From NCBI GenBank assembly GCA_964342815.1, contig CAYFHS010000002.1, positions 216,790 to 280,789 of the forward strand: a stretch of DNA of 64,000 bases. Reading direction: 5' to 3'. The notes beneath the pieces were generated by a model that made no database searches, was not told the origin of the DNA, and saw nothing but the letters and a program-made list of their open reading frames with translations. Below are positions 2-52,206 of the stretch, one piece after another. The position numbers were made by a program, and so were the translations under genes. This DNA is from an uncultured archaeon. Its GTDB lineage: Archaea; Thermoplasmatota; Penumbrarchaeia; JASLWR01. Position 1 is the first letter of the stretch. Each line of letters opens with the position of its first letter.

Positions 2-730
2 GGCCGGGATGTGGCAATCAAGATGCCGCGATTTCTTGAGGAAACCCTGGATTCTTCCATATACGATAAATTCGAATCCGAGGCAAACATGTGGAAGAAC
101 CTTAAACACAAGAATATCGTAGAGTTCTACAGTTCCATTCTCGACCCCTATCCTGCCCTGGTAATGGAACTGATGGAGGGAGGCAGCCTCAAGGGACTGA
201 TGAGCTCGCGGAGACTGACGACCCACGAAGCATTGAGCATATTGATCCAGCTGGTAGACGCCATTTCCTACGCCCACCGCATGGCTTCCATTCACAGGGA
301 CATAAAGCCCGAGAACATCCTTTTTACCATTGACGGCATTCCAAAACTGACCGACTGGGGCATTGGCAAGTTCATGGCATCGGAATCCGCCACCAAGACA
401 GTGGGGGCCAAGGGGACTCTTGCCTACAGCGCTCCCGAACAGGTCAGCAGGAAAAAATTCGGTGTGGTGGATTGGAGCACGGACATATTCCAGATTGCCG
501 TTGTTGGTTACGAGATGCTCACAGGAATAAATCCCTTCATGGAAGATGATCCGGTCAGTATAATGGGCAAGATAATCAACGAGGATGTCACCCCTCCTTC
601 CCTTTTAAATCCGGAGATCTCGCCGCATGTGGATACGGTAATACTCAAGGCTCTGGAGAAACGAAAAGAGGACCGCTGGAGAAGTGCGGACGTAATGTAT
701 GACCGATTGAGGGCTGCAGGCGGGTATTAA
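2..730 (+). CDS. Hanks-type Ser/Thr protein kinase (5'-truncated by window edge)
   Basis: Frame open from base 2 (GRDVAIKMP = subdomain II Lys); HRDIKPEN catalytic loop, DWG (DFG variant), APE motif. Confidence 0.93.
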   Translation, partial: GRDVAIKMPRFLEETLDSSIYDKFESEANMWKNLKHKNIVEFYSSILDPYPALVMELMEGGSLKGLMSSRRLTTHEALSILIQLVDAISYAHRMASIHRDIKPENILFTIDGIPKLTDWGIGKFMASESATKTVGAKGTLAYSAPEQVSRKKFGVVDWSTDIFQIAVVGYEMLTGINPFMEDDPVSIMGKIINEDVTPPSLLNPEISPHVDTVILKALEKRKEDRWRSADVMYDRLRAAGGY

Positions 731-752: not shown

Positions 753-1340
753 TTGATTCCAGGAGGGAAGAACATTTCTCTGTCTGCCTTATGTAGGATA
801 TTTCGTTCATTCTCCCCGTTCTATCTATCCCATCACCCGAACTGCAGGCATTACCGGGATGACGTAATTAAGATCGGCGGAAAAAATATCTGCGGTGGAT
901 GTTTCTTTCTTTATTTCGGACTTATAGTTACGATCCCGCCACTGATTTTGCTGGGCGTTTACGGCTTTCTGAGTCCGCTCCGCCTGGCAATGGTCGGTTC
1001 ATTCATGATCATGCCCACCCTCGCAAGGACCTTCATGCGTTTCCGTTCGGTGTTTTTGCGGAGGTGTGTGAAGATATTCACCGGAGCGGGAGTTCTTCTT
1101 CTTGCCGCGATCCCCATCATTGCCGGCGGGTCGTTATGGCTGAGATATTTATATCTCCTATCTTTGGTCACGATGCTGGCTATGATCAGGTATCTTCAAG
1201 CGGCGAATTTTAGAAATATATGCTTCAGGTGCATTTACCATGGGGATTTTTCCCGATGTACGGGTTTTCGGGAGGTAGCGGAGAGATTGAGGAAGAACGG
1301 CTGTGATCCGTCCCGAATATTGAAAAAACGAAATTTTTGA
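753..1340 (+). CDS. Multi-pass membrane protein with Cys/His metal-binding motifs (DUF2085-like)
   Basis: About 4 hydrophobic helices; HHPNC...ICGGC near the N-terminus and CFRC...RC near the C-terminus. Confidence 0.6.
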   Translation: MIPGGKNISLSALCRIFRSFSPFYLSHHPNCRHYRDDVIKIGGKNICGGCFFLYFGLIVTIPPLILLGVYGFLSPLRLAMVGSFMIMPTLARTFMRFRSVFLRRCVKIFTGAGVLLLAAIPIIAGGSLWLRYLYLLSLVTMLAMIRYLQAANFRNICFRCIYHGDFSRCTGFREVAERLRKNGCDPSRILKKRNF

Positions 1341-30657: not shown

Positions 30658-30809
30658 GGATATACACTCCTTTGCATTTATCACGGGAAATATATTTCAT
30701 TCCACGGAGGTTTCTATAGGCTTTAGATTCCCCTTCTCTTCTCACAAACAGCGGGTTTTTATTTATTTATTTCTTTTCGATATAATATTTTAATATTAAA
30801 GGAAGTTAT

Positions 30810-35300: not shown

Positions 35301-36688
35301 TGTACCTGAAACACGGTTTCATGGGCGATTGGAGACCATTGGAAACCAACTTGCCGAATAACGGGAGCTATATCTGGAACACCACGTTAATGCCCGACGG
35401 CAAGGGTTACTGGCTGCGGCTTGAGGCCGTGGATGATTCTCCGGAGCAGCTGGTGGGAACCGATGATTCCGATTCACCTATTACCATATACAACCCGGAT
35501 CCACCTGAGCTGACAAACCTTACGTTAGCCGGTACGGAGCCGTTAGCCGGTACCGTTGAGATAGAATGGGACCTTTTGGATCCCGACGGAGACCGTGTAT
35601 CCATTGACGTGGCTTGGGGGAACGGAACCGGAGAATGGGTGAATATAACCAGTGGGGAGCGCGATATCGAGAGCTGGGAGTGGGATACAAGCACTGTCAC
35701 GGACGGGGATAATTATAAAATACGCATAACGGCTACGGACCTGTCGGAATATTCCCTACAGGAAGTTGCGCTCAGCGATCTGTTCAGTATCGACAACCCG
35801 GACCCTCCAATCGTTAAGGTGATTTTTCCGGATGGCGGGGAGATAGTGAATGATACTGTTCAGATAAGCTGGATTGCCACCGATGTCGATGGAGATTTGC
35901 TTACGGCTGATGTGGACTATTCCTCTGACGGCAAAAAATGGATCAATATCGTGGAAGATCTGGATTTCACAGATGGCGGTATTCCCGGTAGTTGGTATTA
36001 CAATTGGGATACGCGAGAGCTTCCAGACGGGGAAAATTACCGAATCAGGGTAAAGGTAAAAGACCATTCCCCCTGGGCCCTTGAAACTGAGGATTTTTCT
36101 GAAGGCAGATTTCGAATATACAACCCGGACGCACCGGAGATATTCATCAAGGCATTTTTGGACGGAGAGGTGCTGGCGGGGGAGATTCCCATCATGTGGA
36201 GAGCCGACGACGCTGACCTGGAACTGCTCCTCATAAACATATACATCAGCCCGGACGGTGGAAATAGCTGGGAGCTGATTGCAGAGGACGAGAGGAACGA
36301 CGGGACCTTCATGTGGGATACAACCGGTGTGAATGATGGTACTTACGTAGTAAAATTGACGGCCTACGACGGACTGCTGGGTGCTGAAGACGTTTCCGGT
36401 GAATTTGTGATAAAGAATTTGGAGGATCCGGGCCTGGGGCTTTCACTTGCGGGGGGGCTGATCATTGGATCGGTGCTGGTTCTCCTACTTGGTTGCGGTC
36501 TATTTCTGATGGTTTTGCGGAAGGGAAAGAAAAAGACGGAAGAAACTCTGATTGCCGAAAGCCCCATTCCCAGTGAGCCGTTTGCTGAGGTCGATGCAGC
36601 TCAGATCGATCCTGCACAGGCGAAATCCGTACGTATGAGAGTAGTAAAGAAGAAAATTAGAAATAATACCGGGAACAGTTTACCGTGA
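32339..36688 (+). CDS. Membrane-anchored S8 (subtilisin-like) protease with Ig-like repeats
   Basis: D (YDSS), H (HATAVAG), N (SAGNE), S (ATSMAAPHVSG); about six 100-aa repeats starting (Y)NPD.P; C-terminal TM. Confidence 0.92.
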   Translation: MRRLLALTLFCLLFLCPLFLFVSSTGGPYIPSDVVELPSENWKIREKFSIALKSREITEQTKPMDPTHLSKDKTIHVIVQFAKIPSKDERERLESSGVKLLSRGYLHTNAWFAAVSTSAAPGLLLDPIVLWLGEIEPLDRLSPALYDYSYDKTSDPEWTGRAGQLHLFVNFFSDVSQYQALEVLAGYGDTVRKGRWSDVLNGITCIIDGSDGKILAGLMNEDIVQWIEPEPLPVGNEEDLDYSRPEVEVDRIAMPPYNLKGNGIPVMIYDSSNVRETHVGFSDRVNLVDPKGPSSLSGRPPEVHTHATAVAGIICGNGDPVQNRNLSGMAPEAELYSYWKVNFNFSDGEGAFGDAINERNVYVSHNSWGIVTRAGGPSCVDPIYTDHDGFADYGSKSRWFDEVASGSINEPANERIPLIVFSAGNERDDRVGGTDMNHTDYINFGTINVPKTAKNVLVVGATYDDDGDPDTIHTNEHRGYTELYTGSNWGPCDDGRLKPEVMAPGGTYGNFPGPGGDDNINTTDGRADDGYRAFMATSMAAPHVSGIAALLVEEYRKDHAGDPAASTLKALIIHGARDIVNICSSGSHLDGYVGPDYMTGYGQVRAKASADIIKNDAEHSTLIIEDEIDNAEEIEYSVRVVPGAERLKQTLVWNDLEAGTPNDGAKELINDLDILITDPSGNEIFPYALDPAFPLSQASSNSSDRLNNVEQVVVENPNPGWWRVKIKGFSIPAGPQPFSLVSDLPLRVEQAPRISLLSPDGGEELNGTIPITWRAEDRNRDTLTINISANNGSGWKPVISNEENDGIYYWDTRLVEDGPGYNIRIEAMDDSADRLTGEDISNYSFTIYNPDSPQITVLAPEPGEIKDLVNLNWTVYDPDGDSVSVGLYRSSDTINWSEIARYDDNIGSHGWNTRLFPDGTCWLKANATDSSPYSLTGESKILGPFTVYNPDPPLVRLLSPRGEEKVTGLTPINWSATDGDNDTLSIFLYLKHGFMGDWRPLETNLPNNGSYIWNTTLMPDGKGYWLRLEAVDDSPEQLVGTDDSDSPITIYNPDPPELTNLTLAGTEPLAGTVEIEWDLLDPDGDRVSIDVAWGNGTGEWVNITSGERDIESWEWDTSTVTDGDNYKIRITATDLSEYSLQEVALSDLFSIDNPDPPIVKVIFPDGGEIVNDTVQISWIATDVDGDLLTADVDYSSDGKKWINIVEDLDFTDGGIPGSWYYNWDTRELPDGENYRIRVKVKDHSPWALETEDFSEGRFRIYNPDAPEIFIKAFLDGEVLAGEIPIMWRADDADLELLLINIYISPDGGNSWELIAEDERNDGTFMWDTTGVNDGTYVVKLTAYDGLLGAEDVSGEFVIKNLEDPGLGLSLAGGLIIGSVLVLLLGCGLFLMVLRKGKKKTEETLIAESPIPSEPFAEVDAAQIDPAQAKSVRMRVVKKKIRNNTGNSLP

Positions 36689-36703
36689 AAGTTTCAAGTT
36701 TAC

Positions 36704-37555
36704 TTGGTGAATCAGATGAAAGATATTTTCACCGTCATTATCGCGCTGTCGGCGGTCGCATTGTTGATCGTAGTCCCAATACTCGTATTACAGGACCAGG
36801 GGCCGTCAGAACCGGATAAGACCGATGATACGGATGAGCTGCCCTATGCGTCTCCCCCGGAAAATTACAACTATACCGTGGTGAACACCTTTTCCCATGA
36901 TGTCGATGCTTTTTGCCAGGGATTCGTTTTCCACAACGGTAGCTTTTTCGAAAGTACCGGCCGCTACGGTTCATCCGATATAAGGAAGGTCGAAATGGAC
37001 ACGGGAAATATTCTCATGCAGTACAACCTGTCCGACGAATATTTCGGAGAGGGCATGACAATATTCGAAGACCGGATCATACAGCTGACATGGAAGTCCC
37101 GGATCGGTTTCGTTTACGACCTGGAAACCTTTGAGCGTGAGGATGAGTTTTATTACGCATCGGAAGGCTGGGGCCTGACCCACGACGGCGAGAGATTGAT
37201 AATGAGCGACGGCAGTTCCACCCTGACATTTCTCGATCCCGATTCCTTCGAGGTTCTTGGGAATATACAGGTGAAGGCTGGCGGAGAAAAGATAACCCAG
37301 TTGAATGAGCTGGAGTACGTGGACGGCAAGATACTGGCAAACATCTGGAAATCGGATCGGATCGCAGTCATATCGCCGGAAAACGGTAACGTTACCGGGT
37401 GGATAGACCTTGCAGACCTCCCGGTTGGAAAGGGCGCCACCCCGGCGGACGTGCTGAACGGGATCGCCTATGACGGGACGAACGACAGGCTGTTCGTCAC
37501 CGGGAAACTGTGGCCCCAGGTCTTCGAGATAGTGCTGGACCCGCGTGAGCTTTAA
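36704..37555 (+). CDS. Glutaminyl-peptide cyclotransferase (bacterial/plant type), N-terminally anchored
   Basis: FCQGF, ESTG.YG.S, FGEG.T, EGWGLT, LNELE, VLNGIAYD, TGKLWP. Confidence 0.92.
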   Translation: MVNQMKDIFTVIIALSAVALLIVVPILVLQDQGPSEPDKTDDTDELPYASPPENYNYTVVNTFSHDVDAFCQGFVFHNGSFFESTGRYGSSDIRKVEMDTGNILMQYNLSDEYFGEGMTIFEDRIIQLTWKSRIGFVYDLETFEREDEFYYASEGWGLTHDGERLIMSDGSSTLTFLDPDSFEVLGNIQVKAGGEKITQLNELEYVDGKILANIWKSDRIAVISPENGNVTGWIDLADLPVGKGATPADVLNGIAYDGTNDRLFVTGKLWPQVFEIVLDPREL

Positions 37556-40802: not shown

Positions 40803-43800
40803 TCACCCCATCTTCCCCTTCACCCCGCAGCTCGGGCACTTGATCTTCTTCGCATTCTTTTCAACGAAGAACGATGCATCGCATTTCGGGCATTCCACCT
40901 TTTCGGCCGCACCGGACAGTTTATCGAGTATCTCCTTTTTGGACACTTTCGTCACTGTCTTCTTCCGGCCCGCGTCCGCCGGTGCAGGGGGAAGTTTTTT
41001 CGGTTCGGGCGGCTGCTGTCTCTTCTTGAGTTTATCGAACTCCGCCGCCGGAACGTCTCCCCTGGCGCCGCAGTGCGGACAGGTGATATTCTTTCTGGTT
41101 CTCGTGGTAAAACCCTTGTTGCACTTTGGACACCTTATCTTGACCCCGTCATCGATTATCTCCGACGCGGTTTTTGCCGGGAGAAGCTTTTCTTTTTTTG
41201 CCGGTGCCGTCTTTTTCCTTTTCCGCTCGCTCAATGCCCAGTCCTTTCTTTTCTGCAGCAGCTCGGGAACTTCAGTGGTGATAGTTCCGGTGGCCCCGCA
41301 CTGGGGGCACTTCATGGCCAGCGGTCTCTCGCCGTAATCAAGCACGTCAAAGGTCTCGCTGCACTTTGGGCATATTATCGGCTGGGTGATAGGTTCGATA
41401 AGCTCCGTAATGGGAACGTCCTCTTCTATCTCTACCTCTTCCTCCACCACCTCCGCAACCTCCTCGACATCCACTTTCACCGAGCCAGCCTCCAGCTTTC
41501 CCACTGCTCCTCCCCGTTTCCTTTTCTTGATCACCACTATCAGAAATACAACAATGACCAAAATGATACCTATGAAACCGTACTGGTACATGGCGCCCCC
41601 GGGGATGAACGGAATGAATTTCATCCCATCATCCGCAGTTTCCTCAGGTTCCGGCTCGACGGGTATTGGGGCTCTGCGGGTTATGTTTACCGAATCATAC
41701 GCTGTATAACCGGGATAATCGTCGTTGATTATTTGGGCGAATATCTCGTAGTCTCCTTTGGATTTCATGTTAAAGGTGGTGACGATCTCCTCGAAGTCCT
41801 CCGTGAACTCCTGCGAATCTATCTCCTCATCTTTCATTTTAAGGATGATCACCACCTTATCGATAAAATCGCCTTCCGCCTCAACCGTGACATCGACGTT
41901 TCGCGTCTTGTATGGGAATTTTTTACCGTCACCAGGGTTTGTGATCTCGATGGAAGGAGTGTCCAGTATCACCTCGTCCCCTCCCGCTTTAATTACCGTC
42001 ACATCGAGGGTGACAGTATCATTGCCGCCCTTCTTGTCGTCCACCGTGAGCGTAATGACGTATGTGCCTTCGAGATCGTAGACGTGGGTTACTTCTTTTC
42101 CGTTTTCTTCTTCCGTAATGCCGTCTGAATCGTCGAAATCCCAGGTGAAATCGAGGTCGTCCTCATCTTCATCCTCGGAATCCTCAGCTGTAAGGACTAC
42201 CTCGGTCCCCTCCTTTATCTCACCGGTATTTTTCAGTTTGATATGAGCCACCGGCGGCGTGTTGATTAAAACCGTCAGCGTGTCATTCGCACTGGCTCCT
42301 TCCCCATCCGTAACCATGAGAGTCACAGTGTATTCGCCGGCATCTTTATACGCATAAACGGGAGCCGCTCCGGTCTTCGTCTTACCATTGCCCATATCCC
42401 ACGAGTAGGTGAGATTGTCCACCTCGTCCCCGTCAATAGCTCCGTTCCCGTCAATGTCGTCGTCCGGATCGAAACTGCCGCTGCTATCGAATTTTATATC
42501 GTCCTTAATATTGCCGAGGATATCCTCTCCGGCCTCGGAGATCGGGGGAGTGTTTCTTACTATAATGACGACGTCCAGCTCCGTAGAGTCCTTCCCGTTG
42601 CGGCCGTCGAGAACCCAGAGTATCACTATATACTCACCGGCTTCCTCGTATGTGTGTTCAACCTCTTCCTCCACTGCGTCGATCTCACCATCGCTTTCGA
42701 AATCCCAATTGTATTCCAGTTTGTCCCCGTCCTCGTCGCTGGAGTTCCCTGCGAAGAAGGTCATGGGCTCATCAACATATCCTGCGGAAGTACCTATGAG
42801 TACGGCTATTGGCGGTTTGTTGACGATGATGATCTGGTCGTCGGTGTCATTGCCGCCGAAAGGATCCGAAACGGTCAGGTTGACGGTGAACTCTCCCCGC
42901 TTTGTGAATTTATATGTGGGGGAAACGCTCTGCGAATCCACCTCGCCGTCACCGTCGAAATCCCATGCAAAATGGAGAGGATCTCCTTCTTTGTCGGTCC
43001 CGTTACCGTTGAATTGAACCGTTGTGTTGACATTTATTTTATTATTATCGACATTGATCCTTGCCTTAGGTGCAATATTTTCGACGATCTCGATGTCAAT
43101 GGTATCCGTGTCGTTTGCAGCACTTGGATCCTCTACCATGAGCGTGGCCACGTATGCCCCCGTGCTGTTGAAGGAATGTTTTGGAGTCTTGTTGAAATCG
43201 TCCCAAACTCCGTCGGACTCGAAGTCCCACCTGTACGAAAGCGAATCCCCGTCCGGGTCGGAGGATTCCGAAGCATCGAAGGTGACTTCCTCGTTAACCC
43301 TGGCATCGGTCTTGCTCACGTTAGCACTGGCATTGGGCGCTTCGTTTGGCGTAAGGGTGACAAAAATGGTGACCTTTGCTGTAGAGCTTGCACCGTGAAT
43401 GTCCGATACTGTAAGCGTTATATTATGTGTACCGGCCAACAGGTTTCTCGAAAAGACCGGCTGTGTTGAGAGCTGGCCTGCCTTGTCCGATCTCCAGACG
43501 TAGCCGTCCAGTTCCTCGTTCCCGTTGGGATCCGTAGTGGCGCTCCCGTCAAAACTTATGGAGTCGGATGTGAAGTAGTTTTCACCGTCTGCGGGAGAAC
43601 TTATTATGGTCTGAGGCGGCGAATTGCCAGAGAAGGAAAGCGCGTAAACGTCCTTGTTCCCGGGCTCAATAGAGTCCCAGGTGACCCAGAAACCGCCCTT
43701 AGCGTCCTGGAAGATACAGGGATCGACGTTGTTCCGGAAATCAGTCGGTACAACCTTTGGCTGTGAGTAATGGATCAGGTCGATCGAATCGGAGAGATGA

Positions 43801-46004
43801 AGCGTATCCGTATCATCAGAGTACACAAGCCTGTACATAGCTGTGCTGTCCTGCATCACCGACGGAAAGTAATTATCCTTCACCGTGAAAGTTATCCGGC
43901 TTGCCGTAGAGAAGTTCGCCAGACCCAGGAACACGGTTTGCCAGATCTCGAAATTCCCAGTCCTGTCGCTTGAGAACAACACGGAAATATTTCCATTTTT
44001 ACCTTCCACCAGAGACGGCTCCCTGCTGCGGGAAAGACCTGTGGTGGCAGTTAGAGGCTGCGATAATGATGACAGGGAGTTTCCATATGCTATCCGAATG
44101 GATGTTCCCACTGGTGCAGGCTCATTTATGGAGTACGCCAGGAATATCTTTCCGTCAGCGCGCTGGAAAATGCAGGGATCCATTTCGTCGTATGGGCTGG
44201 TGGTCATCCGGACCGGGGCCGACCAGTATCCGCCCCATTGTGAATATCTAACATAGATGTCGAAGTTTCCCGATGCATCGGAACTGTATGCCAAAGCGTA
44301 GCTCATATTGTCCAGTTGAATCAGTGAAGCTTCCCTTTCGGTGGAAGGCTCATCGGTTACCCGGATGGGAGCGCTCCAGTCTATACCATCCACCGAACTC
44401 TTGAGGAAGATGTTCCAGTTTCCGTCCCTGGAGCTTGACCAGGCGCACCAGAATACGCCGTAATCGTCGAATATGGTGCTCGATCCAACGTCCGGGGACT
44501 GGTGAGATGTGATCTGCTTGGGTCTGGAGAATTCCTTTATCATCAACAACCTTGAATCCGAATTTGACCATGAACCGTTGTTATCCTTTACCCTGAGATA
44601 GATGGTGTGGTTGCCCGGCATGAGAGAATTCATTGTAAAGTTCTGCTTGTTGGACAGCTGACCGCCTATGGAGGAAGACCAGCTCCATTCCACTATGGTC
44701 CCGTCATCGTTTCCCTGGCCCTTGAACTCGATGTTATCCAGCTTGAAAGCCGGGTTCGGCAATATGGAGAGGATACTGCAGGTGGGTTTGGGGTTGATAC
44801 CAACATTATTTACCGTTACCTGGAGGGATCGGACCGCGGACTCGTCGAGAGAATCGTTGGCCTTGGCGGATATCATATGAACGCCATTGGTCTCGAGAGT
44901 GGTATCCCAATTAAGAAGCCAGTCATCCGTCCCCACGGCCCTGTGCCACATGCCGCCGTCAAAACTTATCCATACACTGTCAATCAGGTCTCCATCGTCC
45001 TCATCCGCTGCCGTCCCGGAGATCGCCACGGTGGAATTTACTTCCTGGCCATCAGTTGGGTGGGTGATGGTCACCGTAGGGGGTTTGTTTTCCTTCACCG
45101 TAACAGTACAGCTGTCCAATGCCTCGGCCCCATCATCATCTGTCACCTTCAGGGATGCCGTGAACACCCCAGGATCCACATAACGGTGGCTGGTACGCCC
45201 TCCCATTGCAGAAGCCCAATCGTAGTTGCCGTCACTTTCAAAATCCCACTCGTACTGGGTGATATAACCATCAGTGTCGGCTCCCGTCCCCACCAGATCG
45301 GCAACCTCACCTTCACGAATGGAAATGTCGCTGCCCGCATCCGCCACCGGGGGATAGTTCGCGTCGTAATAGTCTATCTCCAATGCCGAGTCGTAGAGGA
45401 CGGAATCGTAGAGAAATTCAAGATCATTGCTGGTGGTCTGGGCGGTGATCTCAAGCTCCAGTTTGGAGTTCTGCATGATGTAGGTGGAGGGTATGTCGAA
45501 GGTGGCAGTGCCGGTCCGAGTCCTGAGTCCGGATAGGCCCCGGAGAGTAATTGTGTTGTTCTTTATCTGTGCCCCGGATCCCTTGAGGGTAAAGTTTAAC
45601 TGCATGGATGCCACAGGTAGGAACCTCGTATTCAAAAGAGTATAGCTAACGGTGACCTCGCCCTTTACCTCCGCCCGGTATTCGGGAATAGAGTGGCTCC
45701 ACAGGCCCACCTGGCTCCACTGAGCGCCAGGACTGGCCCGGTCAATGGAGATTCTCTGAGGGGTGCTGCTTGTTGGATTTTCCCGGGATAGCTGGCTCGA
45801 ACCCCGAAGATAGAACGTGCTGATGTCTCTCCCAGCTCTCTCGTTTCTGGTGCCCCCGGTTGAGGCAGGTATAATGGGGAAGATGTTTGCTATCAGCAAT
45901 AGGACGGTGACTGTGGCCATAAGCAGTCTAAATGCGGATGTGTTATTGGTCACGCTGAAAAAATATCTTATTTTCATTTTATTTGATCCCCCAGTGCTTT
46001 TCAA
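40803..46004 (-). CDS. Large single-pass surface protein (Ig-like, beta-propeller, multiple PKD domains) with three cytoplasmic Zn ribbons
   Basis: PKD motifs (Y.WDF..DG, TL.V.D..G), propeller-like repeats, TM near 41530-41595, then CPKC..CPQC, CPKC..CPHC, CPKC..CPSC. Confidence 0.88.
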   Translation of the reverse strand: MKSTGGSNKMKIRYFFSVTNNTSAFRLLMATVTVLLLIANIFPIIPASTGGTRNERAGRDISTFYLRGSSQLSRENPTSSTPQRISIDRASPGAQWSQVGLWSHSIPEYRAEVKGEVTVSYTLLNTRFLPVASMQLNFTLKGSGAQIKNNTITLRGLSGLRTRTGTATFDIPSTYIMQNSKLELEITAQTTSNDLEFLYDSVLYDSALEIDYYDANYPPVADAGSDISIREGEVADLVGTGADTDGYITQYEWDFESDGNYDWASAMGGRTSHRYVDPGVFTASLKVTDDDGAEALDSCTVTVKENKPPTVTITHPTDGQEVNSTVAISGTAADEDDGDLIDSVWISFDGGMWHRAVGTDDWLLNWDTTLETNGVHMISAKANDSLDESAVRSLQVTVNNVGINPKPTCSILSILPNPAFKLDNIEFKGQGNDDGTIVEWSWSSSIGGQLSNKQNFTMNSLMPGNHTIYLRVKDNNGSWSNSDSRLLMIKEFSRPKQITSHQSPDVGSSTIFDDYGVFWCAWSSSRDGNWNIFLKSSVDGIDWSAPIRVTDEPSTEREASLIQLDNMSYALAYSSDASGNFDIYVRYSQWGGYWSAPVRMTTSPYDEMDPCIFQRADGKIFLAYSINEPAPVGTSIRIAYGNSLSSLSQPLTATTGLSRSREPSLVEGKNGNISVLFSSDRTGNFEIWQTVFLGLANFSTASRITFTVKDNYFPSVMQDSTAMYRLVYSDDTDTLHLSDSIDLIHYSQPKVVPTDFRNNVDPCIFQDAKGGFWVTWDSIEPGNKDVYALSFSGNSPPQTIISSPADGENYFTSDSISFDGSATTDPNGNEELDGYVWRSDKAGQLSTQPVFSRNLLAGTHNITLTVSDIHGASSTAKVTIFVTLTPNEAPNASANVSKTDARVNEEVTFDASESSDPDGDSLSYRWDFESDGVWDDFNKTPKHSFNSTGAYVATLMVEDPSAANDTDTIDIEIVENIAPKARINVDNNKINVNTTVQFNGNGTDKEGDPLHFAWDFDGDGEVDSQSVSPTYKFTKRGEFTVNLTVSDPFGGNDTDDQIIIVNKPPIAVLIGTSAGYVDEPMTFFAGNSSDEDGDKLEYNWDFESDGEIDAVEEEVEHTYEEAGEYIVILWVLDGRNGKDSTELDVVIIVRNTPPISEAGEDILGNIKDDIKFDSSGSFDPDDDIDGNGAIDGDEVDNLTYSWDMGNGKTKTGAAPVYAYKDAGEYTVTLMVTDGEGASANDTLTVLINTPPVAHIKLKNTGEIKEGTEVVLTAEDSEDEDEDDLDFTWDFDDSDGITEEENGKEVTHVYDLEGTYVITLTVDDKKGGNDTVTLDVTVIKAGGDEVILDTPSIEITNPGDGKKFPYKTRNVDVTVEAEGDFIDKVVIILKMKDEEIDSQEFTEDFEEIVTTFNMKSKGDYEIFAQIINDDYPGYTAYDSVNITRRAPIPVEPEPEETADDGMKFIPFIPGGAMYQYGFIGIILVIVVFLIVVIKKRKRGGAVGKLEAGSVKVDVEEVAEVVEEEVEIEEDVPITELIEPITQPIICPKCSETFDVLDYGERPLAMKCPQCGATGTITTEVPELLQKRKDWALSERKRKKTAPAKKEKLLPAKTASEIIDDGVKIRCPKCNKGFTTRTRKNITCPHCGARGDVPAAEFDKLKKRQQPPEPKKLPPAPADAGRKKTVTKVSKKEILDKLSGAAEKVECPKCDASFFVEKNAKKIKCPSCGVKGKMG

Positions 46005-46098: not shown

Positions 46099-49000
46099 TC
46101 ATAGTTCGATATGGAAATCTTCATCATCATAATCATCATCTGCCGTTTCCGTCTCACCTACTTCCTGTACCGGGATTTTTCCTTCGACTGGACCGTCTTT
46201 CCCTCCGATTGCTTTTTCCGTTTTTCTTGTGCAGTCCCATGGGACTTTTCCATTGGCGTTACCCTCCTCGGCTTCCGGCACCGTGACGTAGTTATCCGAT
46301 CCGCTGTTCTCATCTCTATGTATGTCACTTGAAATATCCTTCGATGATATTTCCTCCTCGTTGCTTTCGATCTCCGTGAAGCCAATGCCGCAGTTCGGAC
46401 ATTCTCCCACTCTCTCGAAACATGCCAGGTGATATTTTTTCCCACATGAACAGGTCACCAAAGGAAGTCCTGTCTTTACGATACCGAAACAGATGCTGCA
46501 TGAGACCGATTTCTCGGCAGGTGCCACCCGCCCCTTATTTACCTCTGCGTTTTCGGTTGACGTTAGGATTTCCATGTGCTCGGCAGCTCCGTCCTCAATC
46601 CTTCCCACAAGCTCTCCTTCCTCATTCGACGGCATCTTGGCCCTGATCCTAGTGACACCGCCTTTCAAAGTTCCACTGCCCCCTTTTTCCGATAAATGAT
46701 CAGGGGCCACTACCACCGGTCCCCTTGATTCCGATTTCCTGGTATATCCGTAATGTATTCCATTGGGTTCCAATTCGATCTCGGATCTGTCTTCCATGAC
46801 ATCATTGGCGATGCCGTGGGAGGGAATATATTCGATTTCCGGCTCCAGCACTTCCTCCTCGCCATCTTCCCGATCTTCAGGATCCGGATCTTCGCCTGCC
46901 CCGTCCCCTTTTTCAGGTACGGATCCGCTCCGACTTTTTCTTCTATGAAAAAGGAAAATGAGCACGACCAGCAGGATAAGTATGAAGATACCCCCGCCGA
47001 TCCACAACCATTCCAGTCCCCCACCGCCTCTTTTATCTTCATCATCCTTATCGTCAATGTCGTCGTCATCCGACCCCACCACCTCATCAGTTAGCAAAAT
47101 GTTAACATTCAGTTCACGCTTACCACCGACGAAGGCTGCAGTTATGTTCAGCGGGTAATTGCCGATATCGAGCTTTGTCGTGTTGTGAATATTAATCTGT
47201 ACCCCGGTCTGTCCGCCCCTTGGAACGGTGATGCTCCGATTGAATGACACATGCCCCCACAGTGGACCGGTGATAGAGAGCTTAACCTCTATGTTGGTGT
47301 TCCCGAGATTAACCAGAGTGAGATTCAAGGTGGTATTCCGTCCTCTTATTATCACAAGGTCGTCGGAATTGAAATGAATGTCAAGGTTGTAAAGTACCTC
47401 GTACGAGCTGTCCAGGGTAAAGTTCCAGACCCCTGACGAGCAGATACCGGGTATCTCGCCGGCAAGGGGAATAACCTTCCACCAGTAAACGGACTTGTCT
47501 TCGAGGTCAGTTAGCAGGTACCACGTTCGGGTGCTGTTGCCCAGTTCTTCAAGAGTATGTTTTTCATTGCCGAAATATATCTGGTATGTCAGAGATGGAA
47601 GGGGATTGATCACCCTCCACGACAGGTTTACATCGGTGGTATTCACTGCAGCGCCATTTTCAGGAAAGAGAAGTTCCACCTGCGGCATGGCGGAAGTATT
47701 GATGATGAAGCTCCATGTACTGCCGGTGCTCAGGGCGGAATTCTCACCGTCGTTACCCACGACGTACCAATAATAAGTCGCCCCGTCCTCAAGGTCCCTA
47801 ACGTCGAGTTTGGAAGATTCCAGACTCCCCATGTAGAAACCGGGTGGATCGCTTTTGGACAGATAAACCTCGAAACTTGTGTTTTCGTCATCGACATCGA
47901 TGAAATCCCATGAAAGTGTAACGTCTCTCGAAAATAATATACTGTTGTTTGCAGGATGAGTCAGGGTGACCACCGGCGGATCATTCACCGGGGTTACGGT
48001 GACGGGTAAGGATATGCTGGATGAATTTGAGCGATTTTCAGCCTCGAACACTGTGGCGTTTAACATGATGTTGCCAAAGTAATCTTTTTTTGGTATGATT
48101 GTGATGTGATGGTCATGGTCCAAGGATGCAGTTATATTTTCATCATCGCACGTTACAGAGAAATCCAAAGTGTCCTTCTCATCGTCGGTGACATATGATC
48201 CCAGGGAGTAATGGGTGGTCATTTCCCGGTCTTCTTCCAAAACAATGGCCGGGGGAAATTTGCGCCATGCGGGAAGGTCGTTCACTTCGAAGACGGTGAC
48301 GTTGAAAATATTGCTCGTGGCCATTCGTCCATAGAGATTGGTGCACTTCACCTTGAATCTGGTTATACCGGTCCAGTTCACGGAAAGGGATATTACGTTG
48401 AGCCATTTCCCTTCAACTTCCGAAGTGATGTTGGCATCGTCAAACCCAGTGACGTTATAGATCGGATCCCTTATTCCGGAATAGGGGTCGCTGAAATGAT
48501 GATCAAGGTTCAAAAGGTTCTTAGTAAGGTTCTCTTCAGGAATCATGAGATCTGGAATATCTTGCATCAATTTCGGGGATTTCTCCGGGGTCCAGTTCAG
48601 CGCCCAATCAATTAACATAGGTGTACGGGTACGATTTGATCCCATAAATCCTTCAAGGTATACCACTGGATGTTCCCACGTGTTTATTTCCAAGAGGTCA
48701 AGGGAAATTGTGCCGGACGTCCCGTTGTCCCACGCTAATGGCTGCCCCGTGGCCGCGTCGTGAATGGACAGGTTCAACATGGTACCGTTATCTACCCGGC
48801 GGCTTGCGTGGAAAACATCCCAGGTGTTATTTTCCGGTACGAAGATATTCGCGGAACGGAAAGTGGAGTTTTTGTGCCCCGTGGAAGCACGATCCATTAT
48901 CTCACTGGGTCCCATTGCCCGGTCGTAAAGGATCATCTCGTCCATGATGCCCTGAAAAGAGCTGTTTTTCATACCTGCGGGATAGCCGCCATCGCTTTCC

Positions 49001-52000
49001 TGAGAGTGCATATCGCCACCTATCAGAAAACCCGTAAGATCCGGACGGATGCTTTGAGAAACGGAGCCGCACGGGAACCCGTCGTTATAGACCGTGGTAT
49101 TCCGCTCATCCACGACGAAAGCCAGGTGCATCCATTCACTCGCGGAAAATCGTCGGAGCGCAGAAACGGTAACGTTTGTCGGCACTCCGAACACTCCCCC
49201 GGCGGCGGACGTGGCGGCAAAGAAATGACCGAACGAGCTTTCCATAAGGGAATATGTTTCACCGCCGCCGAGGCCGGCGCACAGCCTCCACGTTCGTCCC
49301 CCATCAGTGGATTTTACAATCCCCGAAACAATTTCTCCGGTACCTGCGTAGATCGTTCCATCATAAGTCTCCACCAGGGAATATACGGCATGGCCGGGGA
49401 TACCCATAGTGGTCATATTCCAGCTCCCGCCTCCGTTTTCGGACCTGTAAACCCGGGCTCCGGAATCCTTGTACGGAAGCTCCCCGCCGGCAAGTATTAC
49501 CCCGTCGCTAGTTTCCAGCAGCGAATGGATTATCAGCGGCTCTCCATCATAGGCGGTGGCCTGCCAGGTATCGCCGCCGTCCCTGCTCCGAAAAATCGAG
49601 CCCAGATAATTCGTACCGGCGAAGATGGATCCGTCAGAGCTTTCCATCAGTGAATTCACCGCCAATGTCCCTGCGGGAAAGGGGCCGGTGGCTTCCCATG
49701 ACGCTCCTCCGTCCCTTGACCGATAAACTTCACCGGGGACGCCTTCCGTCCCGGCGTAGAGCAGACCCCTGGAGCTCTCCATTAAACAATTGATAGAATG
49801 GGGTGATTGCGTTCCCACGGTGCCCATATCCACCCAGTTCAATCCCCCTGTATTCGTTCTGAACAGCTTTCCGTTGGGTACCGTCCCGGCAAAGATCGCA
49901 CCTCCGGATGCCTGGATGAGAGTAGAGACGTTGGTAGCCCCTGTAAGGCCTCCCGTATTCGTCCAGGTCGCACCATGGTCCAGGCTCTTGAAAACGTCGC
50001 CGTTGGGAGTGGTTCCCGCGTATACAGTGCCGTCTGAGGATTCGAGAAGTGCCCTTACGGACCCGATCCCTGTCAACTCACCGGTAGTTTTCCAGTTCGA
50101 ATCGTTCATCCGATGGCTGATGATGAAGCTGTCGTTTGCTGTGTTGTACATTGCCGTCGTGTCGTTTCCCGTGAACAGACGGTACAGCATCTGTGAACTG
50201 TCATTCGCCGGGAAATCAGGTTTTATACGCATCTCCACAGTCAGCTGTTCATATATTCCCAGCTTACCCGCCCTCACCAGATCATTACTTCCGTCGAATT
50301 TAAGCCCGCCACCGTAGAATCCTTTGGACCTGATTGGCCCGAAAATCGCCCCGTGATTCCCATTACCAGACATGTCCGCTGCCACATCCCCCGCTCCCTG
50401 GTCAAAATGCCAGGCGGCGGAAACGTTTGGGCCGGGAATAGCAGTGTTCGCAGCCAGGGAAAGACTTCCTCCTGCTGTAAGGTTTTCGTAGTCCTCGAGG
50501 CGGGTCGAGGTGATAAAACTGTCACGCCATGCGTTCTCCGCCCGCCATTCCAGACCCCACGATTCCAGTAACGGTTTAATTGTACCTTTAGCTGTGAACC
50601 ATCCCCGTAGTCTGATTGAGGAAATATTCAAATCGTTAAGAACGGAAATATCCGCACTATGCGTGGATATATTTTCGAATCCAGGTATTGGGGTACCGGA
50701 GGCAGCATTCAAGATAGTAACGTTCAGACGGGTATCCTTGGGTTCAGATTTTGCATGACCAAGATGGGACCAGTAAAACGACGGCGGGCGCTCAACTACC
50801 ACAGACTCCAATGAAGTGGTGATATTGGCTTTTTCGGTATGACCAAGATGTACCATTGGTTCCTGCGAAACGTGGTTGCGGATATTGAAGTTGTCGAGAT
50901 AAAATTTGTAGGCATGCCCATTTCCAAGGCCGGTATTCGTAGCATTGTAATAACCGAAAATTACGTAAAAACCGTGCTCAAGAGAGTTGTTCAGGGTCAG
51001 TGCAGCTTGAAATTCATTTTTGTAATATAGCTCGACCTTTGTATCGTCCAGCACGTCCAGCCTTAAGTTTCGAAAAGAACTCCATTCTCTGCCAATGGAA
51101 TTGTTTTCGAAAAGTGAATTTCCGTCCCCGTTGTTCTCCCCCGCTTGAAGGACGGGTGTTAAAAAATTGATGGAATACGACAGGTAAATGTTTTCTACCA
51201 CGGGTGCCTGGGGATGGTAATTGGGGGCCACCAGCAGTATCCTGGCATCCATGGCATCAAAAAGATTATTTTCATTCTTCACAACCATTTGGTCGTATGA
51301 AATTGACGTTCCCGGGAAATAGATATCGCGGCTCATTACGGCGTATCCGTCCAGACCCAGTTCACGGTTCCGGGTCGATTTCAGGCTGCCGCCGTAGTCC
51401 GGGACCAGCGTATTCTCCGCCGTACCGAAAGAATAGGAGATCAGCTTGCCGGTCAGGTTTTTTCCACTGCAATCCTCGAATAGCGAGAAAACCGTGCTGC
51501 CGTTACTCCGGCTTTCGGCAATGGGATTCCCGTAATACATCCGGACCTTGCGTTCTCCGTTTGCAGGTATGTTCGGAATCTTGAGCAAAATGCGGCTTTC
51601 GCCGCTTGCGTTCCATTTCTCGATCCAGTATTCATAATTATTTTCATCACTGTCCACGAACCTGATATCGCTGCCATTTGCATCCGCTTTCGTATAATTG
51701 AAATTCGTGAGGTTGAAATTTATCTTTACCGGGTAATCTGTTAGATTCCCACCCCTTTGGTCCTGTATGGAAATCTCCTGGCGGTAATTCCAGTTGAAGT
51801 CCCACCAGTCCATCTTGACCCTGCTGCCGCGTACCTGGAAATCGGAGTAGTTCGCGAGGCCCGTTTCGTCATTAAAATCGTCAAACCAGCTCCCACCCAT
51901 GGAGTGATTTTCAATAACGACCGAAGATCCGCGCGGTTTGGGAGATAATGGAGATAGCTTTTCGTTAGACAGGTTGCCAGGGCTGGTGATTTGGTCAGTG

Positions 52001-52206
52001 AAGATGGTTTCTGCGGGCGTTTCCAATGGAACAGGTTCGGGGTGAGCTTTTTTTCCCACGATATTGTCTACCCACAATGCACCGGGTTGAAATGACAGTA
52101 TTATGACGGCAAGAAGACAGATTGATCGTTTTACTTTTACTCTTCCGAACAATGGCCGACTCGGTTTTAGAAAAAACATGCTAGTACTTTGATATATATT
52201 AGTCAT
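46099..52206 (-). CDS. Giant single-pass surface protein (DUF2341, LamG, BNR/Asp-box propeller, cadherin/FN3-like) with acidic cytoplasmic tail and C4HC3 Zn finger
   Basis: DGSDIRF..YWIEKW (DUF2341); WHFDQG..F.G..D...DEM (LamG); five S.DGG.TW boxes; TM WLWIGGGIFILILLVVLIFLF; C-x2-C-x12-C-x-C-x4-H-x2-C-x6-C-x2-C. Confidence 0.88.
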   Translation of the reverse strand: MTNIYQSTSMFFLKPSRPLFGRVKVKRSICLLAVIILSFQPGALWVDNIVGKKAHPEPVPLETPAETIFTDQITSPGNLSNEKLSPLSPKPRGSSVVIENHSMGGSWFDDFNDETGLANYSDFQVRGSRVKMDWWDFNWNYRQEISIQDQRGGNLTDYPVKINFNLTNFNYTKADANGSDIRFVDSDENNYEYWIEKWNASGESRILLKIPNIPANGERKVRMYYGNPIAESRSNGSTVFSLFEDCSGKNLTGKLISYSFGTAENTLVPDYGGSLKSTRNRELGLDGYAVMSRDIYFPGTSISYDQMVVKNENNLFDAMDARILLVAPNYHPQAPVVENIYLSYSINFLTPVLQAGENNGDGNSLFENNSIGREWSSFRNLRLDVLDDTKVELYYKNEFQAALTLNNSLEHGFYVIFGYYNATNTGLGNGHAYKFYLDNFNIRNHVSQEPMVHLGHTEKANITTSLESVVVERPPSFYWSHLGHAKSEPKDTRLNVTILNAASGTPIPGFENISTHSADISVLNDLNISSIRLRGWFTAKGTIKPLLESWGLEWRAENAWRDSFITSTRLEDYENLTAGGSLSLAANTAIPGPNVSAAWHFDQGAGDVAADMSGNGNHGAIFGPIRSKGFYGGGLKFDGSNDLVRAGKLGIYEQLTVEMRIKPDFPANDSSQMLYRLFTGNDTTAMYNTANDSFIISHRMNDSNWKTTGELTGIGSVRALLESSDGTVYAGTTPNGDVFKSLDHGATWTNTGGLTGATNVSTLIQASGGAIFAGTVPNGKLFRTNTGGLNWVDMGTVGTQSPHSINCLMESSRGLLYAGTEGVPGEVYRSRDGGASWEATGPFPAGTLAVNSLMESSDGSIFAGTNYLGSIFRSRDGGDTWQATAYDGEPLIIHSLLETSDGVILAGGELPYKDSGARVYRSENGGGSWNMTTMGIPGHAVYSLVETYDGTIYAGTGEIVSGIVKSTDGGRTWRLCAGLGGGETYSLMESSFGHFFAATSAAGGVFGVPTNVTVSALRRFSASEWMHLAFVVDERNTTVYNDGFPCGSVSQSIRPDLTGFLIGGDMHSQESDGGYPAGMKNSSFQGIMDEMILYDRAMGPSEIMDRASTGHKNSTFRSANIFVPENNTWDVFHASRRVDNGTMLNLSIHDAATGQPLAWDNGTSGTISLDLLEINTWEHPVVYLEGFMGSNRTRTPMLIDWALNWTPEKSPKLMQDIPDLMIPEENLTKNLLNLDHHFSDPYSGIRDPIYNVTGFDDANITSEVEGKWLNVISLSVNWTGITRFKVKCTNLYGRMATSNIFNVTVFEVNDLPAWRKFPPAIVLEEDREMTTHYSLGSYVTDDEKDTLDFSVTCDDENITASLDHDHHITIIPKKDYFGNIMLNATVFEAENRSNSSSISLPVTVTPVNDPPVVTLTHPANNSILFSRDVTLSWDFIDVDDENTSFEVYLSKSDPPGFYMGSLESSKLDVRDLEDGATYYWYVVGNDGENSALSTGSTWSFIINTSAMPQVELLFPENGAAVNTTDVNLSWRVINPLPSLTYQIYFGNEKHTLEELGNSTRTWYLLTDLEDKSVYWWKVIPLAGEIPGICSSGVWNFTLDSSYEVLYNLDIHFNSDDLVIIRGRNTTLNLTLVNLGNTNIEVKLSITGPLWGHVSFNRSITVPRGGQTGVQINIHNTTKLDIGNYPLNITAAFVGGKRELNVNILLTDEVVGSDDDDIDDKDDEDKRGGGGLEWLWIGGGIFILILLVVLIFLFHRRKSRSGSVPEKGDGAGEDPDPEDREDGEEEVLEPEIEYIPSHGIANDVMEDRSEIELEPNGIHYGYTRKSESRGPVVVAPDHLSEKGGSGTLKGGVTRIRAKMPSNEEGELVGRIEDGAAEHMEILTSTENAEVNKGRVAPAEKSVSCSICFGIVKTGLPLVTCSCGKKYHLACFERVGECPNCGIGFTEIESNEEEISSKDISSDIHRDENSGSDNYVTVPEAEEGNANGKVPWDCTRKTEKAIGGKDGPVEGKIPVQEVGETETADDDYDDEDFHIEL

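Follow-up and report, generated by a model that had tools for sequence, protein, structure and literature searches.

Does the finger in the tail of a giant archaeal surface protein belong to the RING superfamily, and could it act as a docking site for ubiquitin-type conjugation at the membrane? Both questions are raised by P0001, a gene in a 64,000-nucleotide stretch of DNA (the window, meaning the whole stretch that was analysed) from a metagenome-assembled genome (MAG) of a marine Thermoplasmatota, 89% complete. The sequence-only reading had described its product as a receptor-like surface protein with a cytoplasmic RING-CH/PHD-type finger, perhaps part of an undescribed transmembrane signalling or proteolysis system.

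Results

Layout and membrane topology of P0001

In the 2,035-aa product of P0001, the pattern CSIC-x12-CSC-x4-H-x2-C-x6-CPNC maps exactly onto the residues and positions given in Table 1, and the DUF2341, LamG and BNR modules that had been noticed in the ectodomain were all recovered by Pfam. The single TM helix followed by an acidic tail was also borne out, as the protein has one strong TM helix, a positive-inside HRRKSRS sequence and a tail of about 260 to 280 aa with 22.7% D+E. Moreover, a sequence scan counted 56 N-x-S/T sequons in the 1695-aa ectodomain and 0 in the tail, which together with the positive-inside sequence agrees with the proposal of a receptor-like surface protein whose finger faces the cytoplasm.

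Table 1. Features of P0001 and their positions in the window
Feature	Residues (aa)	Position	Strand	Basis or remark
Whole gene P0001; 2035-aa type-I single-pass surface glycoprotein, cytoplasmic RING tail (predicted)		46099..52206	(-)	ORF list and translation
N-terminal hydrophobic segment, signal peptide or anchor	28-46	52069..52125	(-)	Kyte-Doolittle scan
DUF2341	177-251	51454..51678	(-)	Pfam PF10102, E 1.9e-21
BNR/Reg_prop/Sortilin-type beta-propeller repeats	826-957	49336..49731	(-)	PF07494 1e-10, PF02012 1.5e-7, PF15902 2e-7
Laminin_G_3 / concanavalin-like lectin domain	964-1103	48898..49317	(-)	PF13385, E 8e-10
Cadherin-like/Ig-like (Cadherin_5), weak match	1309-1402	48001..48282	(-)	PF17892, E 9e-4, under cut-off
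TM helix	1733-1753	46948..47010	(-)	Hydropathy 3.0 over 19 residues; sole strong TM of the protein
Positive-inside stop-transfer HRRKSRS	1754-1760	46927..46947	(-)	Sequence reading
Tail motif EVLEPEIEYIP	1785-1795	46822..46854	(-)	Near-invariant in 4 distinct orthologue tails; one with V replacing the second I
Tail motif G[IV]HYGYTRKS.S.GPVVV	1816-1833	46708..46761	(-)	Kept across orthologue tails
RING finger, C4HC3 order	1903-1939	46390..46500	(-)	C-x2-C-x12-C-x-C-x4-H-x2-C-x6-C-x2-C
Extreme C-terminal motif DFHIEL-COOH	2030-2035	46102..46119	(-)	Invariant among orthologues

Orthologues of P0001 at 47-67% identity come from marine metagenomes and one Thermoplasmatota MAG, and the stretch carrying the gene was found in marine and seawater metagenome runs of several studies, with no RNA run among those listed. 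Conservation in the orthologue tails peaks at the RING; elsewhere the tail diverges fast, and beyond the genus only the RING is recognisable. An AF2 model of the whole 276-aa tail, built on a 2-row alignment, reached a pLDDT of 40.9 with secondary structure at the RING only, which is compatible with a disordered linker and is not evidence for one. A longin-like domain could not be placed in the P0001 tail, in which the alignment with the C25 paralogue extends over only about 45 residues ahead of the RING. The window holds no Ubl-system gene, the neighbours of P0001 encoding a subtilase, a glutaminyl cyclase, an HxlR protein and an alpha/beta hydrolase, and an Rfam search of the window gave no match.

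Sequence profile and predicted fold place the tail finger among RINGs

The eight putative zinc ligands of the P0001 finger are spaced within the RING consensus (C-x2-C-x9-39-C-x1-3-[CH]-x2-7-[CH]-x2-C-x4-48-C-x2-C). The exact spacing recurs 19 times in the ORFs of the source genome (21 copies with loose spacing) and 0 times in each of five residue-shuffled controls, so that the motif is not a chance occurrence. The 21 genome copies, which were picked by the motif itself, keep all eight ligands without exception, and they also have non-ligand residues in common. Spacing is rigid (95-99%) across 190 family fingers, and a public protein library holds 1,853 clusters related to the finger. The finger is thus a genuine domain.

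A profile of the 21 genome copies, searched against PDB sequences, matched the RINGs of RNF24 (5.8e-8), RNF165/Arkadia (1e-7) and RLIM (2e-6), as well as HRD1 and the single-pass RING-H2 ligases RNF13 (4.4e-5), RMR1 (5.5e-5) and ZNRF3 (1.6e-4). The Doa10 RING-CH (8.9e-4) and RAF C1 (3e-4) were matched partially, and the Pygopus PHD (1.2e-4) over positions 7-40 alone. Pfam zf-RING_2 matched 18 of the 21 copies, with one paralogue above the cut-off. For the P0001 finger itself, which zf-RING_2 also matched, the top-scoring Pfam family was Prok-RING_1 (PF14446), with 24.6 bits in the tail and 28.2 for the isolated finger, under the gathering cut-off of 29.1 bits; this family matched 14 of the 21 copies at E<=0.01, every one under the cut-off. 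C1_1 and C1_2 matched weakly in one to three copies.

The AF2 model of the finger (pLDDT 91.5) has a beta-beta-alpha core, with strands at 25-28 and 34-36 and a helix at 37-43. Foldseek ranked highest the RNF12, RNF165 and ZNRF1 RINGs taken from E2 complexes (TM 0.6-0.69, rmsd about 2.2 A), and a wide VIA-align search returned ZNRF1 at the top (Z 6.9, rmsd 1.9 A over 51 residues), all its matches having Z <8. PARP-1 zinc fingers and C1 domains came close to the RINGs in that search, at Z 5-6.5, so the fold is not decisive by itself. Taken together, sequence profile and predicted fold make the finger a RING, nearest to RING-H2 and Prok-RING_1. The best matches of the tail in fold and in sequence are RING domains, which speaks against a non-cross-brace treble-clef pair unrelated to RING or PHD, named by the sequence-only reading as its possible undoing.

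The subtype proposed by that reading fared less well. The C4HC3 order and the C-x-C spacing stand; the assignment to RING-CH or PHD does not, as PF12906 (RINGv) and PF00628 (PHD) gave no match for the P0001 finger even at E<=10, and the profile of the genome copies matched RING-H2 domains at 6e-8. RING-CH, which fits in ligand order and C-x-C, was rejected because the L4-L5 spacing is 4 and not about 7, the Trp is missing and PF12906 does not match. PHD was set aside as well, ligands 3 and 4 being separated by x1 and not x2-4, with no Trp two residues before ligand 7 and no PF00628 match. Loop 2, of 6 residues, fits neither.

A paralogous family of membrane-anchored RING proteins

The source genome encodes about 18 RING proteins in all, about 12 of which are paralogous ectodomain-TM-RING proteins with differing ectodomains. 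A TM precedes the RING in 55 of 64 long relatives and follows it in 0 of 64. Small genomes encode TM-RING-Zn-ribbon proteins of 172-290 aa, and tandem arrays of up to 9 fingers, unusual in an E3, occur in some relatives. The paralogues end in EFRIDV, EFRIDL or MKIDM, and the DFHIEL-like end pattern occurs in 15 of 153 relatives (library representatives and orthologues); SHOCT-like ends are also seen in paralogues. Both DFHIEL-COOH and the SHOCT-like ends suggest further binding partners.

Ubl-conjugation partners and their distribution with the RING

A search of the source genome for conjugation partners, called for by the earlier reading, found an E1, two E2s, a GG-ended Ubl and two JAMM proteases, so that E2-like partners do exist. 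The two UQ_con E2s (HPN-Cys), encoded at C48:9653-10141 and C15:16382-16810, scored 55 and 51 bits in a search that none of the control genomes passed. The E1 (C22:10445-11278) is of ThiF type and 54% identical to the operon E1 of relatives (see below), the 80-aa Ubl (C6:2526-2765) ends in GG-C and its gene adjoins that of one JAMM protease, and the second JAMM, which has a C-terminal TM, is encoded beside an E2 gene. These genes are dispersed, and P0001 lies outside any such operon.

Among 401 Thermoplasmatota genomes, 85 carry both RING and E2, 9 E2 only, 27 RING only and 280 neither. Within one family (f11), the 29 of 48 genomes with a RING are identical to those with an E2, and the same holds for 6 of 11 genomes in one genus (g20). 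Two genomes (G004 and G016) have an operon in the order E1, a RING protein of 3155 or 3183 aa, Ubl(GG), E2 and JAB-TM, and the RING adjoins an E2 in four others (G036, G050, G068 and G086). The RING of the G004 operon is 67% identical to that of P0001, the giant protein that bears it being found in another family. For this cytosolic operon protein of about 3,150 aa, the 89% complete source genome gave partial matches only and no orthologue. In the sister family f3, 15 of 24 genomes encode just one RING protein, about 1,480 aa long, and no E2 was found there, even by an E2 profile made for the lineage and applied to five genomes of 95-97% completeness.

E2-facing residues and a predicted complex

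Ile or Val follows ligand 1 in 88% of the 190 family fingers (I1905 in P0001). The corresponding residue of the Caldiarchaeum small RING finger protein (srfp) is I30, and ligation is lost when I30 is mutated (PMC5654768). At the W58-equivalent position the residue is aliphatic in 88% (V1933), and Pro follows ligand 7 in 79% (P1937). The canonical linchpin Arg/Lys after the last Cys, which corresponds to R69 in the Caldiarchaeum enzyme and matters there (PMC5654768), is found in 7 of the 190 fingers (4%), and P0001 has a Gly. As loop 2 is only 6 residues long, the E2-contacting central helix would be short. On the partner side, the E2 family keeps HPN, the Cys and the YP[YF] loop-4 aromatic. 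A separate feature of the family is an Arg or Lys at C6+3, conserved in 89% of its fingers.

A predicted E2+RING complex scored 0.44 against 0.00 for the best control, in a range (<=0.60) where only 7 of 80 solved complexes passed, along with both passing mismatches; the mark itself was reached by 58 of the 80 solved complexes and, among 110 mismatched pairs, by 2. Between runs, at least 92% of contacts agree, and the pLDDT of the partner is at least 79. Since solved RING-E2 complexes exist, the pass may reflect structures that the predictor had already learned, and the model weakly supports E2 docking.

Discussion

A genuine cytoplasmic RING encoded in the same genome as a Ubl, an E1, E2s and proteases probably makes P0001 a receptor-shaped ubiquitin-type ligase from beyond the eukaryotes and the Asgard archaea, and we consider it reasonably probable that the protein is a membrane receptor-type E3-like module that docks a Ubl-charged E2. 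We propose a model in which a lectin- or adhesin-like ectodomain (DUF2341, BNR propeller, LamG and Ig-like) would be joined, via one TM, to a mostly unstructured acidic tail carrying one compact, two-zinc RING. This RING would be a membrane-tethered E3-like docking site for the archaeon's own Ubl conjugation system. Its components would be the GG-ended Ubl precursor, which a JAMM protease trims, the ThiF-type E1 and the HPN-Cys E2s; with the Ubl-charged E2 brought to the tail, the RING would favour transfer of the Ubl onto the receptor itself or onto proteins gathered there, and the membrane-anchored JAMM would reverse the mark. The paralogues, about 12 in number, would form a set of receptor-type RING ligases like the eukaryotic single-pass RING-H2 ligases. 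Zinc binding by the finger, E2 binding by P0001, ligase activity, the putative substrates and a coupling to events outside the cell are all predictions of this model. A broader proposal is made tentatively: marine Thermoplasmatota may have evolved, independently of eukaryotes, receptor-type RING ligases in which differing giant ectodomains, with glycan- or adhesion-type binding, are each connected by a single TM to the same RING. Binding at the surface would thereby be turned into Ubl tagging, and JAMM untagging, on the inner side of the membrane. Such a receptor-E3 system for signalling or turnover, each genome encoding about 12 of the receptors, would have no prokaryotic precedent.

The finger might instead lack any ligase role and be a zinc-stabilised module for protein-protein contacts or oligomerisation, clustering giant adhesins or tying them to a cytoplasmic scaffold. 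The proteins would then be connected with the Ubl system indirectly, or serve it as substrates and not as enzymes. Several points that count against the E3 reading speak for this one, which we take seriously while judging it unlikely: the linchpin is missing in 96% of fingers, f3 retains its RING protein with no detectable E2, and tandem fingers reach 9 copies in some relatives. The DFHIEL-COOH end and the SHOCT-like ends of paralogues, which suggest other binding partners, speak for it too. Burroughs and colleagues are also said to have held in 2011 that not all prokaryotic RINGs are ubiquitin-related. Nevertheless, such a module would hardly account for the tight co-occurrence of RING and E2, with identical sets in one family and one genus, for a 67%-identical RING inside E1-RING-Ubl-E2-JAB operons, or for the conservation of the E2-contact hydrophobic positions and of the Pro. 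The short loop 2, the lack of a Ubl-system neighbour and the middling fold matches also weigh against a docking function.

The ambiguity of the fold bears on another possibility, which we regard as improbable, that of a PHD-, C1- or PARP-type finger which would not act as an E2 adaptor and whose ligand at the membrane would be a peptide mark, a lipid or nucleic acid. Its C4HC3 order is common to PHD, and the partial Pygopus and RAF profile matches, the PARP-1 and C1 structural matches and the few weak C1_1/C1_2 hits all point that way; RING-H2 domains, however, match three to four orders of magnitude better and over the full domain length, neither the Pfam PHD nor the RINGv profile matches, the PHD hallmarks (a Trp preceding ligand 7, and ligands 3 and 4 spaced by x2-4) are missing, and the genomic context points to an E2. 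The fast divergence of the remaining tail, which leaves only the RING recognisable past the genus, could further be taken to mean that the finger is a relic in decay that no longer has a function. This is very improbable, since ligands and spacing are invariant in the genome copies and spacing remains rigid in 190 fingers, while the RING is the best-conserved element of the orthologue tails, and the alignments suggest purifying selection on the finger. The preferred reading remains that of a receptor-type, E3-like module.

In PMC5654768 and PMC6043591, the archaea credited with eukaryote-like E1/E2/RING ubiquitylation are Aigarchaeota and Asgard only, and their systems have one or two small soluble RING proteins. 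Our study adds a full Ubl kit in a non-Asgard phylum, one lineage of which has expanded the RING to the tails of about 12 giant surface proteins. Should these tails be active ligases, a diversity of substrate-specific membrane-receptor E3s has also arisen outside eukaryotes, which would bear on the diversification of E3 families and on what archaeal Ubl tagging serves, be it surface-protein turnover, adhesion control or signalling. A small domain of about 60 aa with defined partner genes makes the system testable at the bench.

Comparison with known systems

The ubiquitylation operons of Caldiarchaeum subterraneum and Asgard archaea, in which srfp serves as the E3 (PMC3082918, PMC5654768, PMC6043591), share with the present system a GG-ended Ubl precursor that a JAMM/Rpn11-like protease trims, together with an E1 of ThiF type, an E2 with HPN-Cys and a partner RING, and the essential hydrophobic residue of the srfp C-x-[IV]-C motif (I30) is conserved in the P0001 family. 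The differences lie in the phylum, here Thermoplasmatota, and in the ligand order, C4HC3 here and RING-H2 there; in the family of P0001, moreover, loop 2 has 6 residues, the Trp is replaced by V/I/L/M and the linchpin Arg is missing. Whereas srfp is small and soluble, the P0001 RING lies at the end of a 2,035-aa, predicted-glycosylated, single-pass surface protein, and about 18 RING proteins contrast with two in C. subterraneum; the genes of the present system are also dispersed and not gathered in one operon.

As a C4HC3-type prokaryotic RING, the finger resembles Prok-RING_1, its best Pfam match just under the cut-off. Both Ubl/JAB systems and membrane anchoring are known associations of this family; to our knowledge, its description includes neither fusion to giant adhesin-like ectodomains nor expansion into a paralogous receptor family. 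The C4HC3 order is given as typical of prokaryotic RINGs in PMC11354881, which cites Burroughs et al. 2011. With C4HC3 RINGs thus described in prokaryotes, and archaeal E1/E2/RING cascades already known (PMC5654768), the system is not undescribed in the broad sense that had been suggested; the novelty lies in the giant ectodomain-TM-RING layout and in the way it has expanded. Our literature searches found no description of a Thermoplasmatota or Methanomassiliicoccales RING/E2 system, a result that does not by itself prove absence.

RING-CH (RINGv; MARCH and Doa10) and PHD fingers have the C4HC3 order in common with P0001, and RING-CH also the C-x-C at ligands 3-4; the P0001 finger differs from both by its short loop 2, the lack of a conserved Trp and profile matches that are partial and weak. 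The closest parallel in layout is provided by the eukaryotic single-pass RING-H2 E3s (PA-TM-RING RNF13/RNF167/GRAIL, ZNRF3/RNF43, RNF24 and plant RMR1), which likewise join an ectodomain, one TM and a cytoplasmic RING, and whose RINGs rank with the best matches of the P0001 finger in sequence and in structure. The ectodomain of P0001 is, in contrast, unrelated and about 10 times larger, and its finger is C4HC3 and not C3H2C3. As nothing indicates common descent for the whole architecture, the likeness in layout between this archaeal receptor family and the eukaryotic membrane E3s is probably convergent.

The tail finger and its class

The C4HC3 finger that the sequence-only reading had placed on the tail of the surface protein P0001, after one transmembrane (TM) helix, was right in every detail. 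The motif is more than chance: the ORFs of the genome (G000) contain its exact spacing 19 times, or 21 times when loose spacing is allowed, five residue shuffles contain none, and the copies share non-ligand residues as well (consensus C-x-I-C-x-G-x-[IV]-K-x-G-L ... Y-H-x-x-C-x-x-R-[VI]-G-x-C-P-x-C). A profile of 21 copies, searched against 1.84 billion representative proteins, matched 1,853 protein clusters at E≤1e-3 (256 at E≤1e-10), with the C4HC3 motif kept in 149 of the best 150. That the finger is a relic is barely credible.

The finger is a RING-superfamily domain with C4HC3 ligands, nearest to RING-H2 and Prok-RING_1. Its best Pfam match is Prok-RING_1, which scores 24.6 bits in the tail and 28.2 bits on the domain taken alone, both below the cut-off of 29.1, followed by zf-RING_2, whose cut-off one G000 paralogue passes. 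Among solved-structure sequences, the family profile matches RING-H2 domains over their whole length (RNF24, 5.8e-8; RNF165/Arkadia, ~1e-7; also RLIM, HRD1, and RNF13); the second Cys of C-x-C aligns with ligand 3 and the His with ligand 5, while the RING-H2 His at ligand 4 is absent and replaced by the first Cys of C-x-C. C4HC3 is typical of prokaryotic RINGs according to a review (PMC11354881). The AlphaFold2 model (21-row alignment, pLDDT 91.5) has a beta-beta-alpha core, and the RINGs of RNF12, RNF165, and ZNRF1, taken from E2 complexes, are its best Foldseek matches (TM-score 0.6 to 0.69, rmsd ~2.2 Å), with ZNRF1 also first in VIA-align (Z 6.9, rmsd 1.9 Å, 51 residues).

The fold alone is indecisive for the class, because PARP and C1 fingers reach Z 5 to 6.5 in VIA-align. 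A PHD- or C1-like reader of ligands is nevertheless quite improbable, the family profile giving only partial matches to PHD (Pygopus), RING-CH (Doa10), and C1 (RAF), at 1e-4 to 1e-3. The RING-CH/PHD identity originally proposed was rejected on these partial matches and on Pfam, where neither RINGv nor PHD matched at E≤10.

Features of P0001, its neighbour, and related RING proteins (positions in the window unless a locus is named)
Feature	Residues	Position	Strand	Remark
P0001 ORF		46099..52206	-	2035 aa
N-terminal hydrophobic segment	28-46			
DUF2341	177-251			Pfam
BNR/Reg_prop/Sortilin-type propeller repeats	826-957			Pfam
Laminin_G_3	964-1103			Pfam
TM helix	1733-1753			single strong one; HRRKSRS directly after
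EVLEPEIEYIP		46822-46854	-	orthologue conservation; linker around diverges
G[IV]HYGYTRKS.S.GPVVV		46708-46761	-	orthologue conservation; linker around diverges
Finger C-x2-C-x12-C-x-C-x4-H-x2-C-x6-C-x2-C	1903-1939	46390-46500	-	exact mapping
DFHIEL-COOH		46102-46119	-	extreme C-terminus; invariant among orthologues
P0002, giant surface protein		40803-46004	-	1733 aa; 8 PKD domains, BNR-like repeats, one TM
~3,150-aa cytosolic RING-ended proteins		L037 1164-10631; L038 1119-10670; L039 1250-10654; L040 4694-14098		E1-RING-Ubl-E2-JAB operons, other Thermoplasmatota families
Small TM-RING-zinc-ribbon proteins		L085-L096		e.g., L085 ORF of 172 aa

A receptor-like family

P0001 carries 56 N-x-S/T sequons in its ectodomain versus none in the tail, which fits a type I topology, glycosylated outside and with a cytoplasmic tail. 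Pfam also finds weak cadherin/fn3-like Ig domains in the ectodomain. The Laminin_G_3 match begins at profile position 25, directly past the BNR/Reg_prop repeats (window 48898-49731, - strand), and LamG-like sequence apparently also precedes the propeller (~aa 600-690); the lectin domain may thus enclose the propeller, which would lie between the two.

With C-x2-C allowed at ligands 3 and 4, G000 holds 22 fingers in 18 proteins, 12 of which combine a TM helix ahead of the finger with an N-terminal part rich in sequons. Their ectodomains vary (NosD/beta-helix with DUF2341 and PKD; LamG with DUF2341; FG-GAP with Ig; PKD arrays), so that the set looks like a receptor family with one common cytoplasmic output. 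A 3,132-aa TM protein (L078; G000:C3:13348-22743, - strand), with no Pfam domain in its body, ends in the variant C-x2-C-x12-C-x2-C-x4-H-x2-C-x6-C-x2-C. Among the long relatives of the best 150, the TM helix precedes the finger in 55 of 64 and follows it in none, and the median TM-to-finger distance is 155 aa over all relatives with a TM before the finger.

The P0001 tail (280 aa, 22.7% Asp+Glu) is recognisable beyond the genus only in its RING, and the model of the whole tail is uninformative (pLDDT 40.9). In four distinct orthologues, conservation extends to the RING, its flanks, and the three short motifs tabulated. DFHIEL-COOH could be a docking motif: G000 paralogues (on C7 and C25) terminate in the pattern [FYM]-[HRK]-I-[DE]-[ILVM]-COOH, as do 15 of 153 fetched relatives, and a SHOCT-like helix pair ends other paralogues and relatives.

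The cytoplasmic tail of P0002 bears four C-P-x-C...C-P-x-C zinc ribbons (Zn_ribbon_4, 2.8e-10; weak IBR matches, 0.005 to 0.01), which may share the RING system, since the small TM-RING proteins also bear ribbons after the RING. Elsewhere in the window, an 824-aa HerA/DUF87-type ATPase (28210-30684, - strand) has at least three C-terminal zinc ribbons (Zn_Ribbon_1, 1e-16; DZR, 7e-16), and the gene for a secreted 1449-aa subtilase bearing Ig-like domains precedes one for a glutaminyl cyclase (32339-37555, + strand), a pair that fits an extracellular protein-degrading lifestyle.

Partner genes and E2 association

G000 (4.35 Mb, 89% complete) encodes two UQ_con E2 conjugating enzymes above the Pfam cut-off, passed by 0 of 14 control genomes; a ThiF E1 activating enzyme that shares 54% identity with the E1s in relatives' operons; an 80-aa ubiquitin-like tag (Ubl) ending in GG-Cys beside a JAMM protease; and, next to one E2, another JAMM, which has a TM helix at its C-terminus. 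The genome therefore does not lack an E2-like or other conjugation partner, whose absence the sequence-only reading had named as counterevidence. A P0001 orthologue (67% identity) occurs in a "Thermoplasmatota archaeon" MAG, and DNA of the window is present in marine and seawater metagenomes.

Across the phylum, 401 sampled genomes, which as relatives are not independent, comprise 85 with both E2 and the RING family, 9 with E2 only, 27 with RING only, and 280 with neither; E2 and RING occupy identical genomes in family f11 (29/48) and genus g20 (6/11). G004 and G016 carry, in this order, genes for a ThiF E1, a RING-ended protein of 3,155 or 3,183 aa, a GG-ended Ubl, an E2, and a TM-bearing JAB protease, and the RING-protein gene directly precedes E2 in G036, G050, G068, and G086. 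No TM helix or Pfam domain was found in the giant operon RING proteins; the G004 RING is 67% identical to that of P0001. Small genomes encode one 172- to 290-aa protein with an N-terminal TM, RING, and zinc ribbons, which in f11 tracks E2 exactly (29/48). Together with the TM-anchored JAMM, these small proteins suggest that the Ubl system would act at the membrane. A Ubl-E2 fusion in G096 carries His where the catalytic Cys would be (L042 7824-8507, + strand) and adjoins a 1,452-aa RING-ended protein (L042 3280-7638, - strand).

Possible E2 docking, alternatives, and known systems

Of 190 fingers compared, 88% have I/V after ligand 1 (C-x-[IV]-C), 88% have V/I/L/M at the helix position that corresponds to the E2-contacting Trp, and 79% have Pro after ligand 7; at the linchpin position, beyond the last Cys, only 4% have R/K, and P0001 has Gly. 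In Caldiarchaeum, whose cascade has been reconstituted, the equivalent residues I30, W58, and R69 are all important (PMC5654768). The Thermoplasmatota E2 family retains HPN, the catalytic Cys, and the YP[YF] loop. A predicted E2+RING complex scored 0.44 against 0.00 for the best control (contact agreement ≥92%, partner pLDDT ≥79), by a mark that 58 of 80 solved complexes reach, as against 2 of 110 mismatched pairs; passes at ≤0.60 comprise 7 of those solved complexes and both mismatches. This lends weak support to E2 docking, and the pass may reflect memorisation, because RING-E2 complexes are solved.

Altogether, P0001 is probably an E3-like module of receptor type that sits in the membrane and belongs to the Ubl system of Thermoplasmatota; its ligase activity is inferred. 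Several points count against a ligase: the missing linchpin and very short loop 2; up to nine tandem fingers in some relatives; no Ubl-system neighbour of P0001 found within the window; and family f3 (G019, G030, G047, G065, and G071), which keeps a single ~1,480-aa RING protein while no E2 was found, even with a lineage E2 profile on five genomes 95 to 97% complete. A scaffold working independently of E2 would be an alternative, and we regard it as rather unlikely given the RING-E2 co-distribution and shared operons.

The sequence-only reading had raised the possibility of an undescribed archaeal system for transmembrane signalling or proteolysis, and "undescribed" holds only in part: the literature searched yielded no description of the giant ectodomain-TM-RING layout or of its expansion in a non-Asgard archaeon, whereas RING families of prokaryotes and E1/E2/RING cascades of archaea are already known.
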